A stretch of DNA of 64,000 nucleotides from a virus, in the IMG/VR virus record IMGVR_UViG_3300007345_000033; one strand, 5' to 3'. The notes below the pieces were generated by a model that was given only the letters and a program-made list of their open reading frames with translations, made no database searches and was not told the DNA's origin. The position numbers were made by a program, and so were the translations under genes. Below, piece by piece: positions 21,194 through 44,754 of the stretch (position 1 is its first letter; every line of letters begins with the position of its first letter).

Positions 21194-21201
21194 AAAAATA
21201 T

Positions 21202-21379: not shown

Positions 21380-21394
21380 CAAAACGAATAATTC

Positions 21395-21470: not shown

Positions 21471-21475
21471 TAAAT

Positions 21476-22480: not shown

Positions 22481-22554
22481 GCGGAATGGTGTAGTAGTAA
22501 CATTTCTGTCTCATAAGCAGAAGATCGTAGGTGCAAATCCTACTTCCGCATCCA
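22480..22554 (+). tRNA. tRNA (anticodon CAT)
   Basis: Acceptor agcggaa/ttccgca. AC stem tctgt/gcaga with loop ctCATaa. T gtaggtgcaaatcctac. CCA encoded. Confidence 0.5.
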
Positions 22555-25279: not shown

Positions 25280-25280
25280 A

Positions 25281-26243
25281 ATGAAAACAATCCTAGCAAC
25301 AATCCTACTAACAACTACTGCATTGACCGCAAGTGCGAATGATATTCGTATTGTTGGATCATCTACAGTATTCCCCTTTGCTTCGGCCGTGGTCGAACAG
25401 TTTTCTAACAAAACTGGAATGAAAGCAACAATTGAATCTACTGGTTCCGGAGGAGGATTCAAACTATTTTGTTCCGGTGTTGATGAAGATACTCCTACCA
25501 TTACCAATGCTTCTCGACGTATCAAAGATAAAGAGGTAGCACTTTGTCGGGATAATGGCGTGACCGAAGTAACTGAATATAAAATTGGTTATGACGGTAT
25601 TGTTTTGATCGGAAATATCGGCGGTTATGATATGGAGATTACCAACGAAGATTTGTTCTTTGCCCTGAACTCAACGATCAAATATGCCGGAGAAACCGTA
25701 CCAAATCCCTATACCAATTGGAGTGATGTTCGACCAGGCCTGCCCGATATTCCAATTGCTGTTATGGGCCCACCACCTTCGTCTGGTACACGAGATGCCT
25801 TTGAAGAATTGGTGATGGAACCAATTGCCAAGGCTTTTGACCTACATGTTGAACTTCGAGAAGATGGTGCCTATATTGAAGCCGGAGAAAACGATAATCT
25901 TATTGTCGAGAAAATCTCAAAAGATGACAATCTTTTTGGTATTGCTGGATTTTCATTCTTAGATCAAAATTATGAGAAAATTAAAGGTGCGGTTATCAAT
26001 GGTGTTGAACCAACCTACGATAATATTGCCGACGGCATTTATCCTGTTTCTCGTTCGTTGTGGTTTTATGTAAAAAATGATCATAATACCGTTATAGATG
26101 GTGTTGAAGATTACGTAAATGAATTTACTGATGAATCTACGTGGGGGCCTGATGGATATCTCGCTGACCTTGGATTGATTAGTCTTCCAGATGCAGAACG
26201 TGTTGCTCCTGAATTTGGTGTCACTAACGGTAAATTCCAATAA
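25281..26243 (+). CDS. pstS: phosphate-binding protein PstS family
   Basis: Signal peptide followed by IRIVGSSTVFPF...ESTGSGGGF, matching the PstS/PBP motif (GSSTV.P...GSG.G). Terminator hairpin gggagcttcggctccc at 26251..26266. Confidence 0.7.
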   Translation: MKTILATILLTTTALTASANDIRIVGSSTVFPFASAVVEQFSNKTGMKATIESTGSGGGFKLFCSGVDEDTPTITNASRRIKDKEVALCRDNGVTEVTEYKIGYDGIVLIGNIGGYDMEITNEDLFFALNSTIKYAGETVPNPYTNWSDVRPGLPDIPIAVMGPPPSSGTRDAFEELVMEPIAKAFDLHVELREDGAYIEAGENDNLIVEKISKDDNLFGIAGFSFLDQNYEKIKGAVINGVEPTYDNIADGIYPVSRSLWFYVKNDHNTVIDGVEDYVNEFTDESTWGPDGYLADLGLISLPDAERVAPEFGVTNGKFQ

Positions 26244-26364: not shown

Positions 26365-26781
26365 GTGTATAAATTGATAAGGAGTTATATCATGGGTTTA
26401 GATATGCATTTGGTTACTGTTAGTGAAGGGGAGTTTCCTCGCTACGAGAATTCTGGTTGTAACTATATTGAAGAAGCGTATTGGCGTAAGGCCAATGCTA
26501 TCCATAAATATTTTGTGGACCTGGCAGGAGTCGATAATTGTGAACCATTCTTGGTCACCAAAGAGATTCTGGAAAATCTACAAGATATTTGTCAGAAAAT
26601 TTTGGCCGACCGACAGCTAGCAGAAGATCTTCTTCCCTCACAAAGTGGTTTCTTTTTTGGTAATACGTCATACGACGATTACTACTACGACCAATTGGAA
26701 TATACTGTTGAACGAATTGAAAACCTTTTTGGGAACAAAGTTTTTGAGGGCAATGATGTTTACTATTGGGCGAGCTGGTGA
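26365..26781 (+). CDS. hypothetical protein
   Basis: Preceded by a canonical promoter (tttact-N17-tataat) and the leader gtataaattgataagga. Confidence 0.45.
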   Translation: MYKLIRSYIMGLDMHLVTVSEGEFPRYENSGCNYIEEAYWRKANAIHKYFVDLAGVDNCEPFLVTKEILENLQDICQKILADRQLAEDLLPSQSGFFFGNTSYDDYYYDQLEYTVERIENLFGNKVFEGNDVYYWASW

Positions 26782-26978
26782 TGGTTGAAATAACAGAAGA
26801 AGAATATAAATTATTTAATCTTTATCGTAAAATATTTAAACATTTAAGGCCAGAAGTATCGGGAACATATTTTATTTGCGGAGAAAGCGGCGAAAAAGAT
26901 GTGAATGGCCTCCCAGAGAAAATAACTGTATGCCCTGCCATGGGAGTTGGGTTCACATCAGTTTATAAAAAAACATAA
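26766..26978 (+). CDS. hypothetical protein
   Basis: Coupled ORF. Confidence 0.35.
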   Translation: MGELVMVEITEEEYKLFNLYRKIFKHLRPEVSGTYFICGESGEKDVNGLPEKITVCPAMGVGFTSVYKKT

Positions 26979-27045
26979 AAAACCTCTTTACTATCATGCC
27001 AGCTTAGCTTATAATACGTGTATAAATTGATTAAAGGTTTATAAG

Positions 27046-27831
27046 ATGATTTATGATCTGACCAAAGTTCCCTCTAAAATCCGGGAGCAAATTGAAACAA
27101 CTCCGAAATACCGAGAGTTGTTCTCCAAGAAACCTGAACAACTTTTGGCGATTGATGGTAATGCGAAAACCATCAAAGGTCAGAAAAAAGGTTTCAAGAC
27201 TGCTATCATGTATCTGACTCCCGGGCGTGGTTCCGGTGAGAATATGTGCCCGACAGCAGCTTTGGCTCAGTGTGAGGCTCCGTGTTTGAACACCGCTGGC
27301 ATGGGCGCCATGTCCAACGTTCAAATTGGTCGCCTCCGTAAAACCCTATTCTTCCAACAATATCGTGACGAATTTCTGGTACTCCTTCGCAAGGAAATTC
27401 GTCGTTGTGTCAAGTCTATCACGAAGAGCGGATATGTTCCTTTGATCCGCTTGAACGGCACGAGCGATATTCGTTGGGAGAATTTTGGTATTCCTCAGGA
27501 GTTTCCTGAAGTTCAGTTCTACGATTATACCAAACTCACTAATCGTAAGAATATCCCATCAAACTACGATTTGACTTTTTCCTATTCCGGTGTTCCCCTT
27601 TATCAACACGTGAACGAACAAGCTGTCAGCGCTGGCTATCGTATTGCTGTCGTGTTTCGTGAGCGTGCTATTGTGCAGCGTTTGTTAGAGAACGGGGAAA
27701 CTTTCATGGGACTTCCTGTGGTGGACGGTGATGATACGGATATCCGTCACCTTGATCCTCATGGCTCTATCGTGGCTTTGTACGCCAAGGGTAAAGCTCG
27801 TAAAGACACTTCTGGTTTTGTGGTTGATTGA
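27046..27831 (+). CDS. conserved hypothetical protein (Cys-rich)
   Basis: 261 aa. Preceded by a promoter copy at about 26985..27040. CPTAALAQCEAPC motif. Confidence 0.45.
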   Translation: MIYDLTKVPSKIREQIETTPKYRELFSKKPEQLLAIDGNAKTIKGQKKGFKTAIMYLTPGRGSGENMCPTAALAQCEAPCLNTAGMGAMSNVQIGRLRKTLFFQQYRDEFLVLLRKEIRRCVKSITKSGYVPLIRLNGTSDIRWENFGIPQEFPEVQFYDYTKLTNRKNIPSNYDLTFSYSGVPLYQHVNEQAVSAGYRIAVVFRERAIVQRLLENGETFMGLPVVDGDDTDIRHLDPHGSIVALYAKGKARKDTSGFVVD

Positions 27832-27832
27832 T

Positions 27833-27988
27833 ATGGATTATACGTTGTTTAAGGAACGAGTCTGGTTCCTTCCTGGCCGTGGGAAATACCTTTACTATGT
27901 GAGACAAAACGGTCGGTTTGTGGGCGGACCGTTTCGGTCAAAAAAAGCCGCCATCGAAGACCTGCGAGTCAGGAAAAATAATTTATAA
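27833..27988 (+). CDS. hypothetical small basic protein
   Basis: Internal Met of tracked ORF 27728..27988 located just after the upstream stop. Confidence 0.3.
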   Translation: MDYTLFKERVWFLPGRGKYLYYVRQNGRFVGGPFRSKKAAIEDLRVRKNNL

Positions 27989-28065
27989 AAAACCATAAAA
28001 AACCTCTTTACTATCATACGATCTTAGCCTATAATACGTGTATAAATTGATAAAGGTTTTATATC

Positions 28066-28281
28066 ATGTCTAAAAAAATCGATCCTGAAGTTTTGGCCTC
28101 CTTTCACGCTTGGGTCAATGACGGCCAAGAAGAGCGTTACGACGAAAACGGTTTTCTGAAACCCGAGTATGAAGACGAATACGAAAACGAAGAAGACGAG
28201 CCTTTCCAGTTTATGGGTTGGTTCGAGAATCAAAATGTTTCTGACGAAGTTTTGGCCCTGGAGGATTCTCTGTATGACTGA
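28066..28281 (+). CDS. acidic small protein
   Basis: Promoter copy at about 27990..28050. Highly acidic sequence. Confidence 0.4.
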   Translation: MSKKIDPEVLASFHAWVNDGQEERYDENGFLKPEYEDEYENEEDEPFQFMGWFENQNVSDEVLALEDSLYD

Positions 28282-28525
28282 ACGAGATAAAGCTATTTCC
28301 CGCCTTCTTAATCATATCTATATGTTAAACGAATATCGCATAGATATTGACGGAAATATGGATTATAAGGAATGGATAAAAACAAACCGTGATCCTTCGG
28401 CGGTAATGAACAAGTACCGTATCGAAGAATGCGAGGATGAAATCGAGGATTTACTCCTATCAATTGAGCTACGTATTCGTAAATGTATGGAATGGTTTAA
28501 GGAAGAAAATGATGAATGTGAATGA
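28274..28525 (+). CDS. hypothetical protein
   Basis: Internal Met of ORF 28169..28525 overlapping the upstream stop (ATGACTGA). Confidence 0.35.
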   Translation: MTERDKAISRLLNHIYMLNEYRIDIDGNMDYKEWIKTNRDPSAVMNKYRIEECEDEIEDLLLSIELRIRKCMEWFKEENDECE

Positions 28526-28823
28526 AATTTTTGAATCCCTACAAGATCTAGAATATAGTATTCTGGAGCAAACTGAAAAAGTTTCGGCCAGAGACCTGGG
28601 CCTTGATCCTCGTTGTGGAATTTTTCATGTGGATAAAGATGGCGAGTTCGTGATGGTGGATAAACATGATCGTCGTAGAGTGGACTACTACGGTGGCCTG
28701 GAATATGTCGATGAAGAAAACATCTTAACCCTGAACGAATACGTTTTGTATATGGCAGATCACGGGCGGATCGCCAGAATGATTAAATTTTATCATGAGA
28801 ATAAAGAATCCGATAATGTATAA
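28509..28823 (+). CDS. hypothetical protein
   Basis: Internal Met of ORF 28437..28823, coupled. Confidence 0.35.
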   Translation: MMNVNEIFESLQDLEYSILEQTEKVSARDLGLDPRCGIFHVDKDGEFVMVDKHDRRRVDYYGGLEYVDEENILTLNEYVLYMADHGRIARMIKFYHENKESDNV

Positions 28824-29417
28824 GCTTCTGAAAGATCATAGCATGGAGGAAATCTACGCTATGATGGCCTCCCATAAAAACGGCAAGACCATTGAGATGC
28901 TGGTGAACGGCAAATGGCAAACAGCAGTTATGCCTCTTTGGTGGCCGAATTGTACCTATAGAGTCAAACATTAAAACCGATAGTTGACTCATAAGTATTC
29001 TTGATTAGAGGAGAATAAATTTATTATGTATATAATGGAAAACAGGAGATTATGTATATGTGTTTGAAAATGAAAAAAACTTCAGAGACGCCATGGCCAT
29101 GACCACACAAAATTATTCTGGCTTTTCTTTGACTCTTTACTCCGTATTTGTCCTGAGAAAGAACGAAAGGGTAAAACATGGCAGTACACTATCATAAAAG
29201 ACATTACTGGTTTCTTCGATAAACAAATCAAAATTTATGGAAACCCCAGAAAAAATGTTATCTTAAAAATGGTTGAGGTGTATTATAAAGCTTGACCACT
29301 ATAGAATAGTATATAATATTGAACTAAAATGAAACGGCCCCAAGCCAATAAAAAGCTCTTTACTTTCATAAAGGCCTAGGCTATAATACGTGTATAAATT
29401 GATAAAGGGAATATACT

Positions 29418-30236
29418 ATGTCAAGAAATAAAACCCGTTTGCCGGTGATGACCGTTTCCTCCAAGCCCGTTGTTCATGAAGAAACTGACGAGCAAGTAAG
29501 TCAGCGTATTTACGACCGTTTCGACGTCCTTGGACTTCTGGCCGAGGCCTGTATTCTAGGTACGGCTCGCTCACTAATCGTTTCTGGTCCGGCTGGCCTG
29601 GGTAAGTCATATACGGTTGAGGAAAAGCTAGCCGGGCATACCAATAGTAGTTTGATTGTGAAGGGTTACGTTCGAGCAACCGGTCTGATTAAACTTCTAT
29701 ACAACTATCGTAATGAGGGGCAGGTTCTTGTATTCGACGACGCCGATACTATCTTTCATGACGATACCTCACTCAATATTCTGAAGGCCGTTTGTGATAC
29801 AACCGAGCAACGCCGAGTATCCTGGCTCTCCGAAGGCACTTTAATTGATGATGAAACCGGCGAGGAAGTTCCCAAGAGCTTCGACTTCAACGGCACAATT
29901 ATCTTTATCACAAACCTTGACTTCGACGCCATGATTAATAAGCGTCATAAACTCACTCCACACCTGGAAGCACTTGTATCACGTAGTCACTATATTGACT
30001 TGTCACTTAAAACACGCCGTGACTACTTGATTCGTATCAAACAAGTGGTAAGCCAGGGTATGCTAAACAACTTTCTCTCGGACACTAATAAAGAAAAAGA
30101 GGTAATGGACTTCATTGAAGAAAACCAAAACAGCCTCCGAGAGCTTTCACTTCGTATGGCAATCAAAGTAGCCAACCTAAGAGCCGGCAATCCTCAGAAC
30201 TGGCAACGCATCGCCCGTGTAACTTGTTGTAAGTAA
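29418..30236 (+). CDS. AAA-family P-loop ATPase
   Basis: Walker A GPAGLGKS. Walker B VLVFDDAD. Promoter copy at 29352..29400. Confidence 0.55.
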   Translation: MSRNKTRLPVMTVSSKPVVHEETDEQVSQRIYDRFDVLGLLAEACILGTARSLIVSGPAGLGKSYTVEEKLAGHTNSSLIVKGYVRATGLIKLLYNYRNEGQVLVFDDADTIFHDDTSLNILKAVCDTTEQRRVSWLSEGTLIDDETGEEVPKSFDFNGTIIFITNLDFDAMINKRHKLTPHLEALVSRSHYIDLSLKTRRDYLIRIKQVVSQGMLNNFLSDTNKEKEVMDFIEENQNSLRELSLRMAIKVANLRAGNPQNWQRIARVTCCK

Positions 30237-30606
30237 AGGAATATAGACTAATGACTCCCTTCGGAAAACTCCCCAAAGACGTACAACGTACCATGCAAAA
30301 AGAACTGGAAAAAGGCCAGACCTTTGAAATGTTTGAATTAAACTTCCAACAATGGTTTCCGTTGAATAATATAACAAAATTTGATGATAGTCTAATATAC
30401 CGTAAGACTAAGTGATAGTGAAAAGATCGTATAGTTTTTTATGTAGTTTAAACTGTACGGTCTAACCCTAAACAATAACATATGTTATATAATAAGTGTT
30501 AAAAAAACGAATGATTAAAAATCCCCAAAAATAAACCTCAGCGAATCAACGATTGTATCAGTCGTGTACGGCGATGTATGGCCTTGAAATGGAGACTAGA
30601 AAAACA

Positions 30607-31005
30607 ATGAAATTCCACGAAATTATCCCTGGATTGATTGATGGTAAAAGGTATCGTCGCCGGAATTGGAAAGACGCCACCAGATATATCTATGCTGATG
30701 TATATACTGATGGTAGCTATGACATATGCGATAACGATTCTTTTGTTGTTGACTCATCAATTGGTAACTGGCTTACTAGCGGTTATGATGAATGGGAAGA
30801 ATACAAAGAATATCCCAAAAATCTAAGCTTTATTGAGGCATGTCGTATGGCAAAAGAAGATGGTGCTGTTGTTAGCACGGGCAGCCGTTCTAATTATGAA
30901 TGGGATGATGGTGCACTGAGAATGCAACATTCAGTATATGTTATTTTTACAGATGAATGTGTTTTTGACAAATGGCATGTTGTTTATTATAAAGGAGAAA
31001 AGTAA
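30607..31005 (+). CDS. hypothetical protein
   Basis: Internal Met of ORF 30553..31005. Confidence 0.35.
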   Translation: MKFHEIIPGLIDGKRYRRRNWKDATRYIYADVYTDGSYDICDNDSFVVDSSIGNWLTSGYDEWEEYKEYPKNLSFIEACRMAKEDGAVVSTGSRSNYEWDDGALRMQHSVYVIFTDECVFDKWHVVYYKGEK

Positions 31006-31418
31006 TGACTGTACGTAATGAAAGCAAGCTAGCACTAGGTGATATGCATGCAGCTCATGTTCGTCATCTTATGATGGCTGAACGGGATGGTAAGACAATT
31101 CAACGTTATACTAATGGTTGGCATGATGTTCGCGAAAAATGCAATTGGTATCTAGATAATGTTTATCGTGTCAAGCCAAATATTGAATTGCGTATTCCAT
31201 GGGAAGTGATCGACCGGAGATGGCAATGGGCAGCTATGGATCGGAATCTAGAAGTGTTTATGTACCCGGAAAAACCAAAAATTAGTGAAAACTACGACGA
31301 CATGTGGGTTTCTGGTGGGGAAGATTATCGGCGGATTGATCATATCGTATTGTTCGATAATCTACCAGACCATAGCGATTGGAAGTTCACACTAACAAAG
31401 CGACCAAATGATGTTTGA
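31005..31418 (+). CDS. hypothetical protein
   Basis: ATGA-coupled. Trp-rich. Confidence 0.4.
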   Translation: MTVRNESKLALGDMHAAHVRHLMMAERDGKTIQRYTNGWHDVREKCNWYLDNVYRVKPNIELRIPWEVIDRRWQWAAMDRNLEVFMYPEKPKISENYDDMWVSGGEDYRRIDHIVLFDNLPDHSDWKFTLTKRPNDV

Positions 31419-31875
31419 TTTTAATAATTTGAAAATTGGTGATACTGTTTATCGGGTTATCGAAGAGTGCCGGATGTTTGATGATACCCCTGACAAAGAA
31501 TTCGCTGAGTTTGATGGTAAGGTGTGGTTTCGGTATACAGCCAAAACGTGGGTTGGAAAGATAAAAGAACTAACAGTGACTGGCAAAACCGCAACAAACA
31601 TTGAAGGTGATATTGGTAATTCTGGGGATAAATATGAACTTCTTGATCGGGTTTATCTAGTTGACGATAAATGTGATTATCAGTATATCACAATTGAAGA
31701 TATTAACGAACATGGAACTGTTGAGTATTTCACTGATAGAAAAGAAGCTGAGGAAAAAGTATCAAAGATTAATCGAATGCATGATCGAAATTTCTCAACA
31801 TTGAAAGAAGCTGAGGAACATCAGAAAAACGGTAGATTGTTAAAAATGAATATTCTAAAGTCTCTGGGAGATTGA
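31408..31875 (+). CDS. hypothetical protein
   Basis: Coupled ORF. Last plus-strand early gene before the repeat blocks. Confidence 0.4.
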   Translation: MMFDFNNLKIGDTVYRVIEECRMFDDTPDKEFAEFDGKVWFRYTAKTWVGKIKELTVTGKTATNIEGDIGNSGDKYELLDRVYLVDDKCDYQYITIEDINEHGTVEYFTDRKEAEEKVSKINRMHDRNFSTLKEAEEHQKNGRLLKMNILKSLGD

Positions 31876-32000
31876 TATGTGTAACGTACCAACATGGCTG
31901 ACCAACTCTCGTGACCAACATGGCTGACCAACTCTCGTGACCAACATGGCTGACCAACTCTCGTGACCAACTTCCTTGACCAACTTCCTTGACCAACTTC
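31876..32000. repeat. tandem direct repeats (23-bp unit x3, then 13-bp unit caacttccttgac x3)
   Basis: ccaacatggctgaccaactctcgtga repeated three times, then gaccaacttcc(t/c)t three times. Confidence 0.8.
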
Positions 32001-32254
32001 CCTGACAACATGGTGTAAAAAAAGGCGGTCAAAAGCCGCCCATACTTTTCTATTATAACAATGATTCCGGAAGTGTAATATACAATCCACTATACGTTTT
32101 TAATAATTTCTAAAATTAAGTTTTCATAATTCAATTCAATAGTAATGTATGTTTAATGCATAATGGGTATAATAAGGTCTAATGATAATTGCCTAACAGC
32201 TAGACCTTATTATACATTGTAATATAGTGTGTTGTATTGTATAATATGTTGGAT

Positions 32255-32400
32255 TCTTGGTTGCGCATTCTTGGTTCTAGAATCTTGGTTGCGCATTCCT
32301 GTTAGATTCCTGGTTGTAGATTCTTGGTTGCGCATTCTTGGTTCGCGAATCCTGGTTCCGGATTCTTGGTTCTCGATCGTTAAACGCTGGGTTAGGAAGG
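32255..32400. repeat. tandem degenerate repeats of about 14-16 bp (attcttggttgcgc / atcctggttc family, about 9 copies)
   Basis: Visible periodic reiteration of (a)ttc(t/c)tggtt(g/c/t)(c/t)(g/a) units. Confidence 0.75.
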
Positions 32401-32565
32401 ATCCGTTACATCGAAAGGATATTTCGGAAATGAGTTGTTTTCTTTCTTCGAACACGATGGAACCGATTAGTTCATTTCGAAACTCGTGGCGTTTAACTTA
32501 GTTTTATATCTTAACCGTTTAGGGGCTGAAAGTAAAGGGGTAATCCGTTGAATTCATTAATTTTT

Positions 32566-32814
32566 TTATGGCGATCGCGCGCTTCGGTCATAAAATATGA
32601 ATATGCCGACGGCGCGCCCAAGCACCTTATGAACTTGACCCATGATATCCGCAGCTAGCAAAGCGTCTCCGTTTGAAACTTTTAAGGCCACAGACATTAA
32701 AGTGCTGTTGGCATTAATCCGTTCAAATAAATCTGAACTGGTTTCCAAAGTTTTTAATGAAGGTTCAATTTCAGGCTGCCAAGAAAAAGTTTCCATTACA
32801 TCGCCGAGTTTCAT
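32566..32814 (-). CDS. small protein in a PeSL-like cassette
   Basis: Minus-strand ORF with the cassette promoter (revcomp ctttact-N17-tataat) immediately upstream at about 32830..32880. Confidence 0.4.
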   Translation of the reverse strand: MKLGDVMETFSWQPEIEPSLKTLETSSDLFERINANSTLMSVALKVSNGDALLAADIMGQVHKVLGRAVGIFIFYDRSARSP

Positions 32815-32915
32815 AAAACTTCTCCATAAGATTAAACCCCATTATACCCTAAGCTGCCATGGAAGTAAAGAGGTTTTTTATGGCCTGGCGCGCTGGGAGC
32901 CGAAGCTCCCATTTC

Positions 32916-33137
32916 TCATTTATTTTTAACCCATGGAATTTTCTCCAAATCTTTTCCAATCGCCTGCTCAATACGATCAATTGCATCATACTCATTATCA
33001 GCTACGCATAAAATGCCATAACCATCACCAATGGCGATAAACGGCCCGAGACGACCAACCAATCGTTCACAAACCAACGTACCATTCTCATAGGCACGAC
33101 GTATATTAATATCATTCAAACACATCAGCAAACCCAT
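32916..33137 (-). CDS. cassette small protein
   Basis: Minus-strand ORF flanked by a cassette promoter (33150..33200) and a terminator. Confidence 0.4.
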   Translation of the reverse strand: MGLLMCLNDINIRRAYENGTLVCERLVGRLGPFIAIGDGYGILCVADNEYDAIDRIEQAIGKDLEKIPWVKNK

Positions 33138-33520
33138 AGATTTAACTCCTTATTACCTATAGGTATGTTATACCCTAAGCTGCCATGGAAGTAAAGAGGT
33201 TTTATATGGCCTGGCGCGCTGGAGGAAATCCCTCCAGCTTTACGTTTATTTTTCTCGGTAATTGATATCAATCAATAGCATTACGGCGATCCCGATAAAC
33301 AAAACGGTGAAATAGACAAACACTCCAGCATAAGTCATTAATAGTTCTCCAGTACAAACAGATCATAAGCTACAAGGCCAATGATAACGAACACGAAAAA
33401 AGTAGTCATAGCGAACCCCTAAAAGCTATAGGTACATTATACCCTAAGCTGCCATGGAAGTAAAGAGGTTTTCTATGGCCCAGCGCGCGATGGAGAAAAG
33501 GGGGCCGAAGCCCCCTTAAA

Positions 33521-33769
33521 TCAGGCTACCTCAATTTCGGGTTCGGAGGCTTTGGCCTTAGTATCGGCAAAGCTTTCACCGGTTGCCCGGCCATTACGGA
33601 CAGCCGAACGATAAGCACGGGTAGCTTCCTTAATACCGAATCCATCCTTTTCCAAGTTTTCGGAATGGATAGCTTCCACGATCAGGGGAAGGACATCTTC
33701 CATAGCCTTGTCGGTGTTAGCGTTCATTACTCCAGCGACAACCGAACGGCGAGTAGGGCGATTCCACAT
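33521..33769 (-). CDS. cassette small protein, MWNRPTRRSVVA family (copy 1)
   Basis: 82 aa. Near-identical to 33901..34149, 36967..37215 and the N-terminus of 36054..36563. Own promoter, RBS (ggagttaaagctATG) and gggggccgaagccccc terminator. Confidence 0.6.
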   Translation of the reverse strand: MWNRPTRRSVVAGVMNANTDKAMEDVLPLIVEAIHSENLEKDGFGIKEATRAYRSAVRNGRATGESFADTKAKASEPEIEVA

Positions 33770-33900
33770 AGCTTTAACTCCTTATTAACTATACCCCATT
33801 GTACCCTAAGCTGCCATGGAAGTAAAGAGGTTTTCTTAGGTTTTTTAAGAATCCTCCGGCGCGCTCTGGCAAAAGAAAAGGGGGCCGAAGCCCCCTTAAA

Positions 33901-34149
33901 TCAGGCTACCTCAATTTCGGGTTCGGCAGCCTTAGCTTTAGAATCAGCATAGCTTTCACCAGGAGCACGACCGTTGCGAACAGCCGAACGATAGGCACGG
34001 GTAGCTTCCTTAATGCCAAAGCCATCTTTCTCTAAGTTTTCGGAATGGATAGCTTCCACGATCAAAGGCAAAACGGCTTCCATAGGCTGGCCTTCGTTAG
34101 CAGACATAACAGAGGCAACAACCGAACGGCGAGTAGGACGATTCCACAT
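33901..34149 (-). CDS. cassette small protein, MWNRPTRRSVVA family (copy 2)
   Basis: Paralog with the same flanking cassette elements. Confidence 0.6.
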   Translation of the reverse strand: MWNRPTRRSVVASVMSANEGQPMEAVLPLIVEAIHSENLEKDGFGIKEATRAYRSAVRNGRAPGESYADSKAKAAEPEIEVA

Positions 34150-34549
34150 AGCTTTAACTCCTTATTAACTATAGGTATGTTATACCCTAAGCTGCCATGG
34201 AAGTAAAGAGGTTTTCTTAAGTTTTCTTAAAAAATCCGCGAGCGCGCTGGGGAGCCGAAGCTCCCCGTTGGATCATGCTATGCTAGTATGGATTCTACGA
34301 AGGGATTCTTCGTCGATACCTTTCAATTCTTGTAGTGTACGTTTACGGATAGTCATCCGGTCCGAATCCTTGTGCATCGGATTGCTCATAATTTTGTCAG
34401 TGATGTGATTTGTAATCTCACGGCGGATGGCGGCAATGGTTTTCATAGCAGAACTCCTTAAAAGCTATAGGTACATTATACCCTATGCTGCTATGGAAGT
34501 AAAGAGGTTTTCTATGGCCAGCGCGCTGGGAGCCGAAGCTCCCCTTTCC

Positions 34550-34747
34550 TTATTCTTTCAACATACGTATTAGCATTTTTACTACGGCTGGATTATCCAT
34601 TTTAAAGATTTTGGTATTTTGGCCTGTATTCTGTGGTGGCACATATTCAAACCACGCACCGCTCTCATCCCGGCGAAAGCGAAGGCACTCCCCGGCTGGA
34701 CGGTCGATATCACCTAACACTAGATTGCCGTAATTATTTTTATTCAT
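34550..34747 (-). CDS. cassette small protein
   Basis: ORF with a cassette promoter and terminator. Confidence 0.4.
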   Translation of the reverse strand: MNKNNYGNLVLGDIDRPAGECLRFRRDESGAWFEYVPPQNTGQNTKIFKMDNPAVVKMLIRMLKE

Positions 34748-34864
34748 CAGCAGGTCTCCTTAAAAGCTATAGGTACATTATACCTTAAACGGGCATGGAA
34801 GTAAAGAGGTTTTTTATGGCCAAGCGCGCGATCGCGAAAAAAGGGAGCCGAAGCTCCCCTTTCC

Positions 34865-35038
34865 TTACTCATCAATATTAGCTAGAGCAGCTGGGCGCCA
34901 ATCATAATCAAACGCAGCGAGTTGACGGGCAAGCTCACACAAAAACGTCCAGTCGTCACCGTAGACCCGGCACTCTTTAATATAACGGTCATAAACGGCA
35001 GAAGCGGCTTCAAAGGCAACACGAGTGGTAATCATCAT
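34865..35038 (-). CDS. cassette small protein, MIKTR/MMITTR family (copy 1, 57 aa)
   Basis: Below the ORF-track cutoff. Manually translated MMITTRVAFEAASAVYDRYIKECRVYGDDWTF... Paralog of 35503..35682 and 35791..35937. Confidence 0.45.
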   Translation of the reverse strand: MMITTRVAFEAASAVYDRYIKECRVYGDDWTFLCELARQLAAFDYDWRPAALANIDE

Positions 35039-35156
35039 TTAAGGCTCCTTATTAACTATAGGTCATTATACCCTAAGCTGCCGTGGAAGTAAAGAGGTTT
35101 TCTTAGAATTCTTCGGCGCGCTTCGGGTAAGAAAAAAGGGGCCGAAGCCCCTTTCC

Positions 35157-35387
35157 TCAAAGTTCTTTTTCAACTATTTCAATATATTCGTTCAGAATAT
35201 CACGAACATTTTTTACATCATAAAGATCGGCGAAAGTAAAAGTTGGGGAATTATAAGAATCTCCAGGGATAACTTCTAACTCAATAGTTAGCTGGGTAGA
35301 ATTATCAGCAAATTCCTCAATATATATTCCCATTTTTTCGTGGCTAAGGTCGAAGCCTTCAGAAATATAAGAATTTTTGATAGACAT
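35157..35387 (-). CDS. cassette small protein
   Basis: ORF with a cassette promoter and terminator. Confidence 0.4.
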   Translation of the reverse strand: MSIKNSYISEGFDLSHEKMGIYIEEFADNSTQLTIELEVIPGDSYNSPTFTFADLYDVKNVRDILNEYIEIVEKEL

Positions 35388-35502
35388 AATTTGCTCCTTT
35401 AAGTTATAAGAGTATATTACCCTAAGCTACCGTGGAAGTAAAGAGGTTTTCTTAGAATCCGTGAGCGCGCCATCGCGAAAAAGGGGCCGAAGCCCCTTTC
35501 CT

Positions 35503-35682
35503 TATGTAAAGTCGTATCCTAGTGCTTTTAATAAAGCCTCGGCGCATCTACGGTCATAATCGGCGAGTTGACGGGATATCTCAGACAAAAACTTCGAGTC
35601 GTCACCGGACGTCCGGCCCTCAGCAATATATTTGTCATAAACGGCACAAGCGGCCTCGTAGGCAAGACGGGTCTTAATCATA
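35503..35682 (-). CDS. cassette small protein, MIKTR family (copy 2, 59 aa)
   Basis: Manually translated MIKTRLAYEAACAVYDKYIAEGRTSGDDSKFLSEISRQLADYDRRCAEALLKALGYDFT. Confidence 0.45.
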
Positions 35683-35790
35683 GTAGAACTCCTTAGTAAC
35701 TATAGGTATGTTATACCCTAAACGGGCATAGAAGTAAAGAGGTTTTCTTAGAATTCTTCAGCGCGCTGGGGAGCCGAAGCTCCCCGTTGA

Positions 35791-35937
35791 TCATTTCAGA
35801 TAGGTACGTTCGTATTCACCGATTTGATAAGCAAGCTCAAACAAAAACTTGAAATCGTTACCAGACGTCCGGCCCAAATCCTGATAGGACTGATAAACGG
35901 CTAGAGCAGCTTCGTAGGCAACACGGGTCTTAATCAT
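35791..35937 (-). CDS. cassette small protein, MIKTR family (copy 3, 48 aa)
   Basis: Manually translated MIKTRVAYEAALAVYQSYQDLGRTSGNDFKFLFELAYQIGEYERTYLK. Confidence 0.45.
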   Translation of the reverse strand: MIKTRVAYEAALAVYQSYQDLGRTSGNDFKFLFELAYQIGEYERTYLK

Positions 35938-36053
35938 AGCAGAACTCCTTATTAACTATAGGTCATTGTACCCTAAGACGCCATGGAAGTAAAGAGGTTT
36001 TCTTAGAATTCTTCAGCGCGCTGGCAAAAGAAAAGGGGCCGAAGCCCCTTTAA

Positions 36054-36563
36054 TCAGTATCCAGTAAGGTTAGAAACTTGTTCTACAGAAAGCGAACTAG
36101 GGGAAGCATAAGGATCGTCAAACGAAGTATCGTAATCGTCCGAACGTTTTTGTTCTTGGGCTTCTTTTTTGATTTCTTCGTCTTGTTCCTTAGCTTTTAG
36201 CTTTGCTCGGTAATCCATTAGACGCTTCATATTAGCCTGGACAACAGCATCCTTTTCCTGATCGGTAATAGTTTCTTTTGTCTCAGACTTTTTCTGTTTT
36301 GGGCTTGCTGTAGTAGCTACCTCAATTTTAGTTTTCTTTTTACGGGGTTTTGGGCTAGCTACTTTACGTTCCGGCATTACTCCGGTTGCTCGACCGTTAC
36401 GGACAGCCGAAGCATAATGACGACGAGCGACTTTAAGGTCACATTCAAAACCGGCTTCCAATTCAGCTTCTACGATCAGGGGAAGGACGTCTTCCATAGC
36501 CTTATCGGTGTTAGCGTTCATTACTTCGGCAACAACCGAGCGACGGGTTGGTTTGTTCCACAT
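36054..36563 (-). CDS. cassette protein: MWNRPTRRSVVA-family N-domain + Lys/Glu-rich C-terminal extension
   Basis: N-terminus MWNKPTRRSVVAEVMNANTDKAMEDVLPLIVEA is homologous to the 82-aa family. The C-terminal half is low-complexity and charged. Confidence 0.5.
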   Translation of the reverse strand: MWNKPTRRSVVAEVMNANTDKAMEDVLPLIVEAELEAGFECDLKVARRHYASAVRNGRATGVMPERKVASPKPRKKKTKIEVATTASPKQKKSETKETITDQEKDAVVQANMKRLMDYRAKLKAKEQDEEIKKEAQEQKRSDDYDTSFDDPYASPSSLSVEQVSNLTGY

Positions 36564-36667
36564 AGCTTTAACTCCTTAGTAACTATAGGTATGTTATACC
36601 TTAAACGGGCATGAAAGTAAAGAGGTTTTCTTAGAATTCTTCTGGCGCGCTGGCAAAAAGATCCTTC

Positions 36668-36850
36668 CTATTGTTTCCAGGCGTGTTTGATATCGTCGTA
36701 AAACTCTTCAAGTTGAGCTTTCCAATAAGCACGATATGCCGCAAAAGGACTATTGAACGATAGATTATTTTCCGCACACCATACTCTAACGTCAGCCTCA
36801 ACCATAGCTTCTAGATCAGAATGCATTGAGCAAATTTTAGGATATTCCAT
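36668..36850 (-). CDS. cassette small protein
   Basis: ORF with flanking cassette elements. Confidence 0.35.
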   Translation of the reverse strand: MEYPKICSMHSDLEAMVEADVRVWCAENNLSFNSPFAAYRAYWKAQLEEFYDDIKHAWKQ

Positions 36851-36966
36851 ATTCTCTCCTTTAATATATTTTTAAAGTATAGCCTATAAGATCATGATAG
36901 TAAAGAGGTTTTCTTAGAATTCTTCGGCGCGCGAAGCGAAAAAAAGGGGGCCGAAGCCCCCTTAAA

Positions 36967-37215
36967 TCAGGCTACCTCAATTTCGGGTTCGGTAACCTTA
37001 GCCTTGGTATCAGCATAGCTTTCACCAGGAGCACGTCCATTACGAACGGCAGAACGGTATGCACGGGTAGCTTCCTTCATACCAAAACCGTCTTTCTGGA
37101 GATCGTTAGAATAAATAGCTTCAACGATCAGGGGAAGGACAGCTTCCATAGGCTGACCTTCGTTAGCAGACATAACAGAGGCGACGACAGAGCGACGGGT
37201 TGGTTTATTCCACAT
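36967..37215 (-). CDS. cassette small protein, MWNRPTRRSVVA family (copy 3)
   Basis: Paralog. Terminator gggggccgaagccccc at 36945..36960. Confidence 0.6.
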   Translation of the reverse strand: MWNKPTRRSVVASVMSANEGQPMEAVLPLIVEAIYSNDLQKDGFGMKEATRAYRSAVRNGRAPGESYADTKAKVTEPEIEVA

Positions 37216-37295
37216 AGCTTTAACTCCTTATTAACTATACCCCATTGTACCCTAAGATGCCCTGGAAGTAAAGAGGTTTTCTTAAGAATCTTCGC

Positions 37296-37420
37296 GCGCT
37301 GGACCAACCAACTGCCAACCAACTATATACTAACCAACCAACTGCCAACCAACTATATACTAACCAACCAACTGCCAACCAACTATATACTAACCAACCA
37401 ACAACTAACCAACCAACTAA
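37296..37420. repeat. tandem direct repeats (30-bp unit x3 plus partial)
   Basis: ccaaccaactgccaaccaactatatactaa repeated three times, followed by degenerate ccaacc units. Confidence 0.8.
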
Positions 37421-37799
37421 CGATAAAATACTCAAATTGTATGCGAGCGCGGTGCCCGTATAATAATTTGAATTTCGTAGAAAAGTTCTTTCGGTTCCCC
37501 GTAAAATACGGTATAATGTAAATAATATAAAAGTTTCTTAGGAGATACGTTATGGAATCCCATTTCTTCGTGGTTCGTTTCTTTATTATGATGGGCTGTA
37601 TTTTGGGTAGTATTCTTATTCTCGCCCATATAGCTGATACTTTTATTATATATTAGTATACACGAGTAACGCTTGAGCGGTAGCGCTGCGCTAGCGCTAT
37701 ACTTAAAGCTTACGAACGAATCATGCGCTAGGGTCATTTTTATTCTAACCCCCCCCCACCATTAATACATATGGTTCGGGGGTTTAGGAGTTTTTGAGT

Positions 37800-37920
37800 A
37801 TAAGCATCGCCAACGAGAGTCAACGAGAAGGAAGAGTCTTCAACGAGAGTCAACGAGAAGGAAGAGTCTTCAACGAGAGTCAACGGGAAGGAAGGGTCGC
37901 CAACGAGAGTAAACGAAAAG
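37800..37920. repeat. tandem direct repeats (31-bp unit x3 plus partial)
   Basis: caacgagagtcaacgagaaggaagagtcttc repeated with minor variants. A C8 homopolymer at about 37750 lies just upstream. Confidence 0.8.
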
Positions 37921-38143
37921 CAAGGCGATAAACGATTTTCTTTTAACTAAAGCCTTACCTCATCTTTAAGGGATTTCGCTTTGCCTTATATATAAAAAAA
38001 CCGCCGGGAAATTTTTTGGTATCAAAAGGTCGATTAATAATAGTTTATTATAAAAACCAAGGGTCTATACTATACTAAAAGTTTTGTATCAAGCTTTAGC
38101 TATTTGTTGAATTATTACCTAAGACAAGATTACCGTACCCTTT

Positions 38144-38527
38144 TCATTCATCTGCTAAAATTTCTCCAATAATATCTTCTAGGTCAAAGTTCTTGTAAGC
38201 AACCTTCTTGCCAGTTCTATGATCAACAACACGATTATCAGGTTCATTGTAAGTCCTAACAATATCCGTGGCATTGAACCGATTTTTTTGATCCTCTCCA
38301 TAATACCACTGAACAACCTTCTTGGCAAGTATATTAAACGCTTCCTTTAGATTTCGTGATCTTTCTCTATGGTTCTGTCCGATTACAGTAATACCTGACT
38401 CAATATGAGTGATACGAACGCAGTTTTGGTGCTTATTTCGATGTTGACCACCAGCACCAGTTCCTGAAAACCAGTCTAGCTTAAAATCCTTTTTGGTCCA
38501 AGACTTATCTGGAATTTTATTAGTCAT
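38144..38527 (-). CDS. GGQ-motif peptidyl-tRNA hydrolase domain protein (ArfB/YaeJ/ICT1-like class I release factor domain)
   Basis: SGTGAGGQHRNKHQNCVRITHIESGITV matches the RF-1 domain SGxGGQxVNKxxSAVRxTHxPTGIVV, including the catalytic GGQ. 127 aa, as in ArfB. Confidence 0.6.
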   Translation of the reverse strand: MTNKIPDKSWTKKDFKLDWFSGTGAGGQHRNKHQNCVRITHIESGITVIGQNHRERSRNLKEAFNILAKKVVQWYYGEDQKNRFNATDIVRTYNEPDNRVVDHRTGKKVAYKNFDLEDIIGEILADE

Positions 38528-43994: not shown

Positions 43995-44385
43995 AAAAAA
44001 CAGTTGATAACTTATAAAAATTCCTTTACTTCTAAACTAAAATTAAATATACTATATAAATAATAAGCGGATTTGATTATCAGATTCTAAAAGTTATTCA
44101 GGACACGGGGGCAGTTCCCGTCGTCTCCACCAGAAGAGTATTGGTTATCAGGGTTGGAATAAACCTGGTGTAATAGATTTTCCAAACGTCCAGTACTCTT
44201 TTGATGGGGACGATTCAGGTTCGACTGGTAATAAGTAAGTTCTCTGTAGAATACGCTATTTAAAAATAAATGCTAACGATAACTTCAAAGCATTTGATTA
44301 CGCCTTAGCTGCGTAATCATTGGGCGGCCACTGCCTCGAAACAGAAGTGTGGCATTATTTCCTAAAATTTTATGAAAGGTTTAAC

Positions 44386-44754
44386 ATGAAAACATTTTTG
44401 ATTGCAACTACTGCATTGGTAGTTTCAACAACAGCAGCCTTGGCTGGTGGAATGCAACCAGGCGTTTGGTCTGGTGAGGCTTTTGCAGAATATGGGGTAA
44501 ATGCCCAAGATGTAACACTTGGAGGCGGTGTTGCTTATGATATCAACTCAGTTAGCTTGTGGACTGAAACTGAACTTCAAGTAGCTCAAGAAGTTGATTT
44601 GACTTTGAGTGATGTTACCTTTGGTGCAGATTATGCAATTCTACCTCAAGTAGATGCGTATATGGCATTTGAGTTTGCTGGTAATCCAGATGCAGCTAAT
44701 GGTCTTGGGGTTGAATATAATGAAACTTCAATTGGCCTTCGCTACGAGTGGTAA
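44386..44754 (+). CDS. secreted small beta-barrel outer-membrane-like protein
   Basis: Signal peptide MKTFLIATTALVVSTTAALA. Alternating hydrophobic pattern. C-terminal ...GLRYEW (terminal aromatic, typical of OM beta-barrels). Terminator ggggagcttcggctcccc at 44762..44779. Confidence 0.45.
   Translation: MKTFLIATTALVVSTTAALAGGMQPGVWSGEAFAEYGVNAQDVTLGGGVAYDINSVSLWTETELQVAQEVDLTLSDVTFGADYAILPQVDAYMAFEFAGNPDAANGLGVEYNETSIGLRYEW

Follow-up and report, generated by a model that had tools for sequence, protein, structure and literature searches.

A probable PeSL-type array of 14 small-gene cassettes in the hyperplastic region of a divergent, uncultured T4-like myovirus

Promoter-early stem-loop (PeSL) cassettes have been described in the T4-type phages RB49/phi1, T4/PST and KVP40/nt-1 (Arbiol et al. 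2010, PMC2839356; Comeau et al. 2014, PMC4122927). The promoter consensus of the T4/PST elements is TTTACW-N17-TAYWAT (PMC4122927), and PeSL crossovers map between the -10 element and the ATG, according to the earlier report (PMC2839356). Hyperplastic or hypervariable regions of cyanophages and pelagimyophages have been called the 'ORFanage' (PMC4503421; PMC7029224), and the density of PeSLs in them is reported as low (PMC4503421). Here, the 64,000-nt stretch of DNA that was analysed (the window) was found to carry a minus-strand locus that is probably a cassette array of the PeSL type, situated in a hyperplastic region of the genome of an uncultured and divergent T4-like myovirus. A PeSL-like architecture had been proposed in the initial annotation, and the module order (stem-loop, A-rich region, -35/-10, SD, ATG), the promoter consensus and a cassette order that differs in relatives all fit it. 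Judging from its gene content, the genome is that of a T4-like phage of this kind: PHROGs matches were found for gp6 (baseplate wedge) and gp5 (hub), gp6 being 35% identical to that of Caulobacter phage Cr30 and Sinorhizobium phage phiM12, and neighbouring genes match the Pfam families for gp32, gp59, gp33 (Trans_coact), T4 spanin and Y07C.

Table 1. Cassettes and neighbouring repeat elements, in window coordinates
Feature	Coordinates	Strand	GCGCGC box	Promoter core	ORF	Remarks
Whole array	32560..37300	-				14 intact regulatory-module + ORF cassettes and degenerate 3′ modules
Cassette 1	36933..37299	-	37294-37299	37267-37278 (-35 core)	A1 36967-37215, 82 aa	Family A, short form; G5C-UUCG hairpin + T-run
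Cassette 2	36651..36932	-	36927-36932	36899-36910	s60 36668-36850, 60 aa	Singleton; downstream hairpin absent; L151 orthologue 77%
Cassette 3	36022..36650	-	36645-36650	36616-36627	A4 36054-36563, 169 aa	Family A, full-length
Cassette 4	35767..36021	-	36016-36021	35988-35999	B1 35791-35937, 48 aa	Family B, helical hairpin; L151 orthologue 91%
Cassette 5	35471..35766	-	35761-35766	35733-35744	B2 35502-35681, 59 aa	Family B
Cassette 6	35122..35470	-	35465-35470	35437-35448	s76 35157-35387, 76 aa	Singleton; L151 orthologue 72%
Cassette 7	34830..35121	-	35116-35121	35088-35099	B3 34865-35038, 57 aa	Family B; L151 orthologue 79%
Cassette 8	34527..34829	-	34824-34829	34800-34811	s65 34550-34747, 65 aa	Singleton
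Cassette 9	34248..34526	-	34521-34526	34498-34509	s57 34273-34446, 57 aa	Singleton; L151 and L106 orthologues 84-89%
Cassette 10	33865..34247	-	34242-34247	34202-34213	A2 33901-34149, 82 aa	Family A, short; missing from variant L012
Cassette 11	33489..33864	-	33859-33864	33821-33832	A3 33521-33769, 82 aa	Mosaic of A1-, A2- and A4-like tracts; 26-nt deletion in L010/L011
Cassette 12	33220..33488	-	33483-33488	33459-33470	33338-33409 (23 aa) and 33246-33338 (30 aa)	Overlapping hydrophobic micro-ORFs; similar ones in L105/L106
Cassette 13	32894..33219	-	33214-33219	33190-33201	s73 32916-33137, 73 aa	Singleton; L151 and L105 orthologues 83-85%
Cassette 14	32566..32893	-	32888-32893	32864-32875	s82 32566-32814, 82 aa	L151 orthologue 60%
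Degenerate 15th module	32505..32565	-				ccataaaaaa...CCCCTTTACT-N17-TAAGAT; no ORF behind
Non-coding tandem repeat	37303..37419	.				15/30-nt unit, ACCAAC-rich; abuts first module; copy number differs among contigs
Non-coding 30-nt tandem repeat	37811..37924	.				Upstream of array; copy number differs among contigs
Non-coding 14-nt tandem repeat	32253..32371	.				Downstream of degenerate module
Tandem repeat and hairpin	31888..32041	.				13/26-nt repeat 31888-32006, bidirectional terminator-like hairpin 32023-32041; meeting point of minus-strand block and plus-strand genes

The count of about 14 minus-strand cassettes, each with its own promoter and ORF, that had been made at the outset was recovered here (Table 1). 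In each unit, a GCGCGC box precedes AAAACCTC-TTTACT-N17-TAYAAT; a ribosome-binding site (AGGAG) and a small ORF come next, and in most units a C(UUCG)G hairpin closes the series. In a motif count, AACCTCTTTACT was present 14 times without mismatch in the minus-strand interval 32864-37278, versus only four such copies, all on the plus strand, in the remaining 59 kb of the window. After each array copy come 17 nt and then TATAAT, TACAAT, TATAAC, TATACT or TAATAT, in agreement with the near-identical sigma70-type promoters that had been noted earlier; promoter and leader are 95-100% identical. The composite GCTTCGGC-N(3-25)-GCGCGC-N(8-32)-AACCTCTTTACT occurs 11 times, versus 0.00 in shuffled sequences. 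Elsewhere in the window, the AACCTCTTTACT-type -35/upstream core serves as promoter for other genes, for tRNAs and for the tmRNA region, there with neither hairpin nor GCGCGC box, and therefore represents the general promoter class of the phage. At the distal end of the array, the 3′ part of s82 passes through two more GCGCGC boxes (32612 and 32577) of decayed modules; the s82 orthologue in the related phage L151 stops at the box.

The cassette ORFs are real genes under selection. The initial annotation had named missing ribosome-binding sites or coding signal and absence from related phages as grounds for doubt; instead, an SD-like site lies 9-13 nt ahead of the ATG, with AGGAG in 12 of 15 ORFs, the pooled ORFs have GC1/GC2/GC3 values of 0.54/0.39/0.39, dN/dS is 0.08-0.11 in family A, and orthologues with 60-91% amino-acid identity are present in related phages. 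No cassette ORF had a match in Pfam, PHROGs or PDB; the products are probably early-expressed accessory proteins, and the host-takeover or anti-defence role suggested for them at first is hypothetical. As first described, two paralogous small-protein families stand beside unrelated singletons and hydrophobic micro-ORFs. That is, family A has three copies of 82 aa and one of 169 aa, family B has members of 48, 59 and 57 aa, and six cassettes with a single ORF plus the micro-ORF pair (23 and 30 aa) make up the rest, no cross-family BLASTP match with E < 0.01 being detected among the cassette ORFs.

The 169-aa A4 protein combines a 3-helix N-domain, a K-rich linker, an amphipathic helix and an acidic tail, and homologues of similar length and layout occur in other contigs. 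A4 is thus not the fusion, or 'fused longer version' of the 82-aa ORF, that it had been taken for, but the full-length member of a wider uncharacterised family, of which the 82-aa copies are N-domain-only versions. Since the N-domain is HTH-like and the linker basic, family A may tentatively be considered as nucleic-acid binding; Foldseek returned nothing below E = 1 for this family, with fold matches that were weak and generic for three-helix bundles. Synonymous divergence (dS) is 0.9-1.3 among the family A copies and 0.3-0.5 among those of family B, indicating that the paralogs are old, not freshly amplified, and the earlier suggestion of ongoing amplification is not sustained.

Folding predicted a strong hairpin (-12 to -20 kcal/mol) at 12 of the 13 junctions, the exception being junction 36564-36667, and the loop is UUCG in 11 of these 12. 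A GC hairpin in each unit had thus been recognized almost correctly, whereas its designation as a terminator holds less well: a T-run follows only seven of the 12 hairpins, the other five adjoining the GCGCGC box directly, and for these roughly 40% lacking a U-tract the label is not established. The array hairpins are best described as putative terminators or RNA stabilisers. C(UUCG)G tetraloop hairpins were reportedly found in T4 intercistronic regions by Tuerk et al. in 1988. The likeness lies in extra-stable GC stems, closed by UUCG, between phage genes; here, however, the hairpin is part of a repeated module together with a promoter and a GCGCGC box.

Metagenome contigs of several sampling projects, more than 20 in all, carry the same array with at least 99.5% identity and few SNPs. 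The array is almost invariant in the sampled population, so shuffling is rare on that time scale, and a locus that is both this stable and built of old paralogs lends no support to the rapid evolution initially attributed to it. One variant, L012, lacks 1012 bp corresponding to cassettes 10-12, and its junction falls within a 47-nt stretch identical in both promoters. L012 is a single 4.6-kb metagenome contig ending in another repeat, and could be an assembly chimera; this is made less likely by the repeat shared at its junction, which does not reach the length of the assembler's final k (141). Orthologous cassettes in a different order were found in the related phages L151 and L105-L108, represented by short contigs only (0.7-4.1 kb). 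The order in L151 is s73, A, micro-ORF, s57, s82, s60, B1, A, s76, B3, A, compared with A1, s60, A4, B1, B2, s76, B3, s65, s57, A2, A3, micro-ORFs, s73, s82 in the window. Repeats of about 100 nt can mislead short-read assemblers, and the relatives' contigs end in repeats, which might suggest a collapsed or chimeric region with spurious small ORFs. Such an artefact is nevertheless scarcely credible, given that the independent contigs, from JGI and ENA assemblies, agree in order and sequence, several showing 100% identity with the window along 3-10 kb, and that the ORFs are under purifying selection and have orthologues.

The GCGCGC box had been described as present in each unit and conspicuous, and the counts agree: of the 18 GCGCGC hexamers in the whole window, where 2.05 would be expected, 16 fall within 32577-37299. 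The box is a third, selectively maintained module component and a candidate regulatory or recombination element. It could be an operator through which a dimeric regulator, encoded by host or phage (family A being a candidate), would switch the whole array together. This is unlikely, as the box lies anywhere from 17 to 40 nt away from the -35, with no helical phasing, no extended palindrome surrounds the box in the 14 modules, promoters of the same class elsewhere in the window lack it, and the family A fold matches are only the generic ones mentioned above. Alternatively, hairpin and GCGCGC could form a recombination or nicking site at which a phage or host enzyme cuts and joins cassettes, in a dedicated, loosely integron-like system that does not use general homologous recombination. 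The hexamer is invariant in 14 of 14 modules, its flanks and spacing being variable, relatives retain it despite their different -35 hexamer, CGCG is otherwise depleted in the window (21 observed versus 45 expected), and the PeSL authors speculated on a stem-loop-targeting protein (PMC2839356). Even so, this mechanism is improbable: no integrase, recombinase or homing endonuclease was found among the Pfam-annotated genes within ~10 kb on each side, the one mapped crossover lies in a promoter, ~30 nt from the box, mosaic breakpoints are spread over module and ORFs, every cassette is equipped with a promoter, in contrast to those of integrons, and the hairpins are perfect stems, not attC-like.

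Under the PeSL reading, each unit would be a self-sufficient transcription unit, with a host-sigma70-type early promoter (TTTACT-N17-TAYAAT, A-rich upstream), a conserved leader that is A/U-rich and contains AGGAG, a single small ORF (or, in one case, two micro-ORFs) and a very stable C(UUCG)G hairpin. The seven U-tract hairpins should terminate transcription, and the five others more likely serve only 3′-end stabilisation or attenuation; the labels 'early' and 'terminator' follow from sequence consensus only. The modules, of ~100 nt, are near-identical, so they could act as homology patches for the phage recombination machinery, and module-module exchange would delete, duplicate, convert and re-order whole cassettes while leaving expression intact. 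Such exchange is supported by the deletion variant, the mosaic modules and paralogs, the permuted order in relatives and the concerted -35 difference between lineages (TTTACT in all window modules, TTGACT in those of relatives). Identical promoters could, alternatively, be kept by selection alone. A related explanation is plain tandem gene duplication and divergence, in which promoters and hairpins would be left from one ancestral unit and kept alike by selection for expression, with no cassette mobility. The two families do account for 7 of the 14 cassettes, neighbouring modules are alike (type I linkers in the 5′ half of the array, type II in the 3′ half) and the array is stable in the population. 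It is an improbable explanation all the same, because the ORFs of seven cassettes (the six with a single ORF and the one with the micro-ORF pair) are unrelated to one another while flanked by homologous modules, coding dS is ~1 versus 95-100% identity of promoter and leader, order is permuted in relatives with the ORFs still orthologous, and regulatory sub-elements are reassorted within modules as mosaics of other units.

The locus resembles PeSL cassettes in its T4-like myovirus setting and in its composite module, where a stem-loop closely precedes a sigma70-like early promoter with an A/T-rich upstream region, and an SD leads to the ATG of a small ORFan. Moreover, its promoter is that of the T4/PST consensus, the hairpin, of the form A3-4 G3-5-loop-C3-5 T3-4, is similar to the nt-1 type, and the modules are clustered in a variable region, with deletion and re-ordering junctions inside modules. 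It differs in having 14 uninterrupted units, compared with the six ORFs of nt-1, the densest run described in the available text of PMC2839356 and PMC4122927, and in the invariant GCGCGC box between hairpin and promoter; no such element was found described in these two papers, and 'palindrom' has 0 occurrences in PMC2839356. Furthermore, nearly all loops are C(UUCG)G, no U-tract follows five of the hairpins, two paralogous families supply half of the cassettes, and the gp6 of this phage is only ~35% identical to that of any sequenced phage. Like integron arrays, the locus is a linear array of small, mostly unrelated ORFs with a repeated hairpin-capable separator and with order and content varying among relatives, but no integrase (Pfam-annotated genes within ~10 kb) or attC architecture was found, each cassette has a promoter, and the mapped crossover lies in promoter homology. 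As in the 'ORFanage' of aquatic T4-like phages, blocks of small ORFans stand between conserved T4 core modules; the PeSL density is reported as low there (PMC4503421), versus one per gene in the present array.

Direct reading of the minus strand between 32000 and 38000 revealed a strictly repeated unit layout. The 12-mer AACCTCTTTACT, each array copy of which includes a -35-like TTTACT, is present in 14 copies, all on the minus strand, and only four exact copies, all on the plus strand, are found in the remaining 59 kb of the window. At a distance of 17 nt past this core lies a TATAAT, TACAAT, TATAAC, TATACT or TAATAT hexamer, so that by sequence match alone all 14 units carry TTTACT-N17-TA(Y/A)(A/T)(A/C)T, with AAAACCTC ahead of each. 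The -10 box is followed by a conserved leader, an SD-like site located 9-13 nt ahead of the ATG (AGGAG in 12 of the 15 array ORFs) and the ORF itself. The composite motif GCTTCGGC - 3-25 nt - GCGCGC - 8-32 nt - AACCTCTTTACT was found 11 times in the window versus 0.00 in shuffled sequences. The promoter copies, SD sites and composite motif counts thus confirm the repeated promoter/RBS/ORF layout proposed in the initial annotation. The coordinates of these and other features are listed in the table.

Positions of features in and around the cassette array and elsewhere in the window
Feature	Position	Strand	Remarks
Array copies of AACCTCTTTACT	32864-37278	-	14 copies
Family A, short form	36967-37215; 33901-34149; 33521-33769	-	82 aa, 3 copies
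Family A, long form	36054-36563	-	169 aa
Junction 36564-36667	36564-36667		hairpin absent
Decayed 15th module	boxes 32612, 32577; promoter ~32505-32542		past last ORF; CCCCTTTACT-N17-TAAGAT
Tandem repeat	31888-32006		non-coding; 13/26 nt
Tandem repeat	32253-32371		non-coding; 14 nt
Tandem repeat	37303-37419		non-coding; 15/30 nt
Tandem repeat	37811-37924		non-coding; 30 nt
Stretch without convincing ORF	32040-32560	-	~500 nt
Inverted repeat	roughly 32168-32214		14 bp
Bidirectional terminator-like hairpin	32023-32041
Hydrophobic ORF	37552-37656	+	34 aa
RF-1-domain protein gene	38144-38527	-	127 aa
TATAAATTGA, non-array promoters (examples)	26368, 27021, 28041, 29393, 20131, 22612	+
TATAAATTGA, non-array promoter (example)	14179	+
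TATAAATTGA, non-array promoter (example)	43	-
tRNA gene cluster	11521-22554	+	~24 genes
GOLLD RNA	21892-22359	+	full-length
tRNA-Met	21958-22030		nested in GOLLD RNA
tmRNA	44026-44407	+	permuted
Auxiliary metabolic genes	14693-17127; 24000-26243	+

The -35/upstream core of the array modules (AAAA.CTC TTTACT) also precedes other genes, the tRNA clusters and the tmRNA region, and must therefore belong to the general promoter class of the phage, presumably, by analogy with T4, its early class. The non-array copies come without hairpin and without GCGCGC box and have a different leader, TATAAATTGA, which in most of them is found ~5 nt past the -10; a conserved CTTAG stands just ahead of the -10 in these promoters. 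The array leader, TATAGTTAATAAGGAG, is related to, yet distinct from, TATAAATTGA. What sets the array apart is its hairpin, its GCGCGC box and its leader variant.

The array ORFs fall into family A, in its short and long forms, family B (three copies of 48, 59 and 57 aa), six ORFs of 57-82 aa that are unrelated to one another, and two hydrophobic micro-ORFs of 23 and 30 aa that overlap as a pair. In an all-against-all BLASTP, the array ORFs gave no cross-family match at E < 0.01, and the comparison agrees with the earlier description of two paralogous small-protein families accompanied by unrelated singletons and hydrophobic micro-ORFs. A coding signal was also recovered for these small ORFs: their pooled codon-position GC is coding-like (GC1/GC2/GC3 = 0.54/0.39/0.39), dN/dS among family A paralogs is 0.08-0.11 (0.7-0.8 among those of family B), and for seven cassettes related phages have orthologues that share 60-91% of their amino acids. 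The array ORFs are real genes. Their duplications, though, are old, with dS values of 0.9-1.3 in family A and 0.3-0.5 in family B, which does not bear out the ongoing paralog amplification that had been proposed. As a separate observation, GC3 is 0.39 both in the array and in the adjacent promoter-rich block (26365-31875) and 0.21-0.23 in structural genes (55800-62554 and 46659-52379), a contrast that might stem from codon adaptation having taken different courses in the early and late genes of this tRNA-rich phage.

A word-indexed search of 5.8 billion proteins with family A returned matches from its own phage population only, and an exhaustive HMM search retrieved 38 distant clusters. Since most of these are 150-180 aa long and align along the whole 169-aa protein, the latter is the full-length form and not, as initially described, a fusion; the 82-aa copies, like the 79-88-aa forms found elsewhere, are N-domain-only versions. 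The aligned length starts with an N-terminal helical domain, which is followed by a linker rich in Lys and Ala, a helix reading 'EEIE.IKAANL.R' and then an acidic stretch, and it closes with 'P.FLT..V..LV'. Family B is predicted to form a two-helix hairpin (pLDDT 94 for the best model, 65-69 for the other four). Pfam and PHROGs gave nothing credible for ten cassette proteins or for ten family A homologues, PDB sequence profiles gave no meaningful match with the cassette proteins, and Foldseek against the PDB gave no match below E = 1. Likewise, tblastn of one family A homologue (P0016) against phages found no match, and a homologous-protein search with the last array ORF returned only itself. 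A role of the cassette proteins in host takeover or anti-defence, as suggested in the initial annotation, would be no more than a reasonable prior for early T4-type ORFans.

RNA folding predicted a strong hairpin (-12 to -20 kcal/mol) at 12 of the 13 junctions between cassettes, 11 of them with a C(UUCG)G loop; five stems directly adjoin the GCGCGC box. A U/T-run follows the hairpin at seven junctions only, the U-tract typical of intrinsic terminators being absent at the other five. The earlier assignment of a terminator to each unit therefore holds in part, the label appearing justified for about half of the junctions.

Sixteen of the 18 GCGCGC hexamers of the window lie within 32577-37299, where ~2 would be expected for the entire window. 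There is one box per module, and the hexamer does not vary among the 14 modules of the window, while the bases next to it do, with no extended palindrome found around it in the array modules; it is located 0-17 nt from the hairpin and 17-40 nt from the -35. In contigs of related phages the box is exact in 9 of 11 modules of L151, with one or two changes in the other two, and in every module of L105/L106, although the promoters of these phages differ from those of the window. Moreover, CGCG is depleted outside 32000-38000 (21 observed vs 45 expected under a Markov model), whereas 24 of the 47 CGCG of the window fall in the 4.7-kb array. Taken together, the invariant hexamer, its variable flanks, its retention in relatives and the scarcity of CGCG elsewhere argue for selection on the hexamer itself. 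GTAC is also low outside 32000-38000 (ratio 0.66), and the low CGCG and GTAC outside the array may reflect restriction-site avoidance. GANTC (CcrM) sites showed no overall enrichment.

The conserved GCGCGC box is the one unexplained feature of the array, and no such element is described in the PeSL papers (PMC4122927, PMC2839356). Three roles are conceivable: the box may serve a dimeric regulator as operator, be targeted by a nicking or recombination factor, or mark a structural boundary prone to Z-DNA formation. We regard it as an unlikely, though conceivable, scenario that the box, possibly together with the adjoining C(UUCG)G hairpin, is a cis-site for a phage-encoded protein, which would make the locus self-regulated and perhaps actively self-shuffling. 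The obvious candidates for recognizing such a site would be the HTH-like family A proteins of the array itself. If true, a third, protein-targeted component would join the PeSL concept, and the question left open by the PeSL authors as to whether a 'helper' protein exists would be answered.

Within the population of this phage, the 169-aa protein was found on 21 contigs and the 73-aa protein on 19 (JGI and ENA assemblies). The aligned contigs show 99.5-100% identity to the window, an unchanged order of cassettes and very few SNPs. An assembly artefact was rejected in view of more than 20 concordant contigs. Two kinds of differences were seen in the array: A3, one of the short family A copies, is truncated by a 26-nt deletion in two samples, and contig L012, a single short-read contig, lacks 1012 bp corresponding to the cassettes A2, A3 and the micro-ORFs. 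The L012 junction carries on its upstream side the upstream region peculiar to the A2 promoter and on its downstream side the leader of the s73 (73-aa singleton) cassette, and in this one contig the switch falls within a 47-nt promoter stretch identical in both modules, as predicted for PeSL-PeSL exchange. This single mapped crossover is not at the GCGCGC box. Mosaicism is also apparent in the window itself: the modules combine two hairpin, two or three linker, two spacer and three leader types in various ways, and A3 is pieced together from A1-, A2- and A4-like tracts (A4 being the long form). The module cores are 95-100% identical while synonymous sites of the adjoining family A genes are near saturation, implying strong constraint, homogenization by gene conversion, or both.

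Related phages were reached by two routes, the exhaustive family A profile search, which turned up a short form of 79 aa on L105-L108, and a metagenome scan, which yielded the 4.1-kb contig L151, derived from a JGI sample that also gave one of the array contigs. Both relatives have the same kind of array, and their orthologous cassettes share 75-90% of nucleotides with those of the window, but cassette content as well as order differs. Genes flanking the array are likewise rearranged in relatives. The order is A1, s60, A4, B1, B2, s76, B3, s65, s57, A2, A3, micro-ORFs, s73, s82 in the window versus s73, A, micro-ORF, s57, s82, s60, B1, A, s76, B3, A in L151 (s, singletons by length in aa), collinearity being limited to two small blocks, s76-B3 and the part surrounding B1. 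The -35 is TTTACT (CTC-TTTACT) in all modules of the window, whereas it is TTGACT in nearly all modules of the relatives and TTGATT in one; the orthologous -10 boxes and leaders hardly differ. Such a lineage-wide difference amounts to a concerted promoter switch, and the modules of one genome therefore evolve together. Scanning IMG/VR for GCGCGC-N-AACCTCTTTACT gave five loci, all of them chance matches on unrelated or GC-rich contigs, and scanning it for hairpin plus GCGCGC gave 42 single matches, judged to be chance, and no arrays. The full composite motif, which does match the window, had no match in the metagenome contig collection, where the phage is apparently absent.

The array is bracketed by the only four long non-coding tandem repeats of the window. 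Those at 31888-32006 and 37303-37419 are ACCAAC-rich and that at 32253-32371 carries the complement GGTTG; the copy number of the two repeats on the 37-kb side (37303-37419 and 37811-37924) varies between population contigs. GACCAAC-type repeats of 12 nt also occur at 2905-2971 and 3302-3356 of L104, an unrelated 162-kb IMG/VR contig encoding a full-length family A protein. The stretch that separates the decayed 15th promoter from the bidirectional terminator-like hairpin has no convincing ORF and contains an inverted repeat; it may be a remnant or encode a non-coding RNA. It has no Rfam match, and Rfam at permissive E-values over 31800-38200 returned terminator-like fragments only. On the other side, a small hydrophobic ORF reads away from the array and is annotated as a gene in several of the source contigs; L151 has a similarly placed 35-aa hydrophobic ORF (505-612) on the opposite strand. 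Immediately upstream of the array region is the gene of an ArfB/peptidyl-tRNA-hydrolase-like RF-1-domain protein, which has 252 relatives in IMG/VR (best 65% identity, on L016), with no array downstream. A flanking 155-aa gene has relatives at 78-85% identity on L096-L098, short contigs that contain neither an array beside it nor any of the motifs.

The genome is that of a divergent T4-like myovirus: PHROG matches include the baseplate wedge gp6 and the hub/lysozyme gp5, gp6 is ~35% identical (tblastn) to its counterparts in Caulobacter phage Cr30, Sinorhizobium phiM12 and cyanomyoviruses, and precomputed Pfam annotation of neighbouring genes on the same contigs comprises gp32, gp59, the gp33 co-activator, the T4 spanin and Y07C. 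Megablast of the 6-kb array region against 50,697 phage records and tblastn of the neighbouring 1197-aa protein against phages found no match. The tRNA genes cover most amino acids, several standing behind the TTTACT-N17-TATAAT promoter class, and their cluster includes a GOLLD RNA (Rfam RF02032, 224 bits vs a gathering score of 150). The tmRNA, directly behind a promoter of the array's class, is of the alphaproteobacterial type (Rfam RF04321, RF01849; ARAGORN tag ANDNFKAFDYALAA), which suggests an alphaproteobacterial host; the phage probably infects an alphaproteobacterium in estuarine water. The RF-1-domain protein, tmRNA and tRNAs form a translation-rescue toolkit. The auxiliary metabolic genes encode an NMNAT-Nudix fusion and nicotinamide phosphoribosyltransferase (NAD salvage), a Band_7 protein and a PstS-like phosphate-binding protein.

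To our knowledge, PeSLs (promoter-early stem-loops) have been described only in a few cultured T4-type phage pairs. Two other repeat systems were considered and rejected. Integrons have a tyrosine-recombinase integrase, attC sites and promoterless cassettes; here no recombinase Pfam family was found in the genes ~10 kb either side of the array, each cassette has its own promoter, and the hairpins are perfect-stem UUCG hairpins. In a CRISPR-like array the repeats would not be promoters nor the 'spacers' translated ORFs, as they are here. The locus alone reveals no new kind of system. It does, however, bring an uncharacterized 38-cluster protein family with full-length and N-domain-only forms, and could serve as a test bed for a specific factor in PeSL exchange, for the role of the GCGCGC box and for that of small early proteins.

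A PeSL is a composite terminator/promoter motif in which a stem-loop is located just upstream of a sigma70-like early promoter; the motif further includes an AT-rich region, the -35 and -10 boxes, a Shine-Dalgarno site and the start codon of the gene that follows. PeSLs concentrate in hyperplastic regions beside ORFans that differ between close phages (Comeau et al. 2014, PMC4122927). In T4/PST the consensus reads TTTACW-N17-TAYWAT, and the stem-loop of phage nt-1 is A3-4 G3-loop-C3 T3-4 (PMC4122927). Neighbouring PeSLs exchange, with crossovers between the -10 and the ATG, and mini-circles are produced (Arbiol et al. 2010, PMC2839356). The array shares this design: in a T4-type myovirus genome (gp5/gp6 PHROGs, gp6 tblastn, Pfam neighbours), all 14 units have a putative sigma70-like promoter with a 17-nt spacer and an A/T-rich upstream region, and each module has at its 3' end an SD-like site and the ATG of a small ORF, which in PeSLs is usually an ORFan and here lacks Pfam and PHROG matches. 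A PeSL stem-loop would terminate the preceding gene; in the array a stable hairpin is predicted at 12 of 13 junctions, with a U-tract at only seven. The units cluster in a region whose ORFs differ between relatives (L151, L105-L108), and indel or replacement junctions fall in modules (the deletion in L012, a single short-read contig; A3 and the module mosaics). The PeSL-like structural reading of the initial annotation was thus correct, the modules matching the published layout and the T4 promoter consensus, and the locus is probably a PeSL-type cassette array, long and of unusual regularity, from a novel T4-like lineage. Its natural variation supports module-mediated shuffling: the re-ordering between relatives, the promoter crossover deletion and the concerted -35 difference provide natural comparative evidence for the proposed mechanism, and the same PeSL design recurs, unusually pure and long, in a very distant uncultured T4-like lineage.
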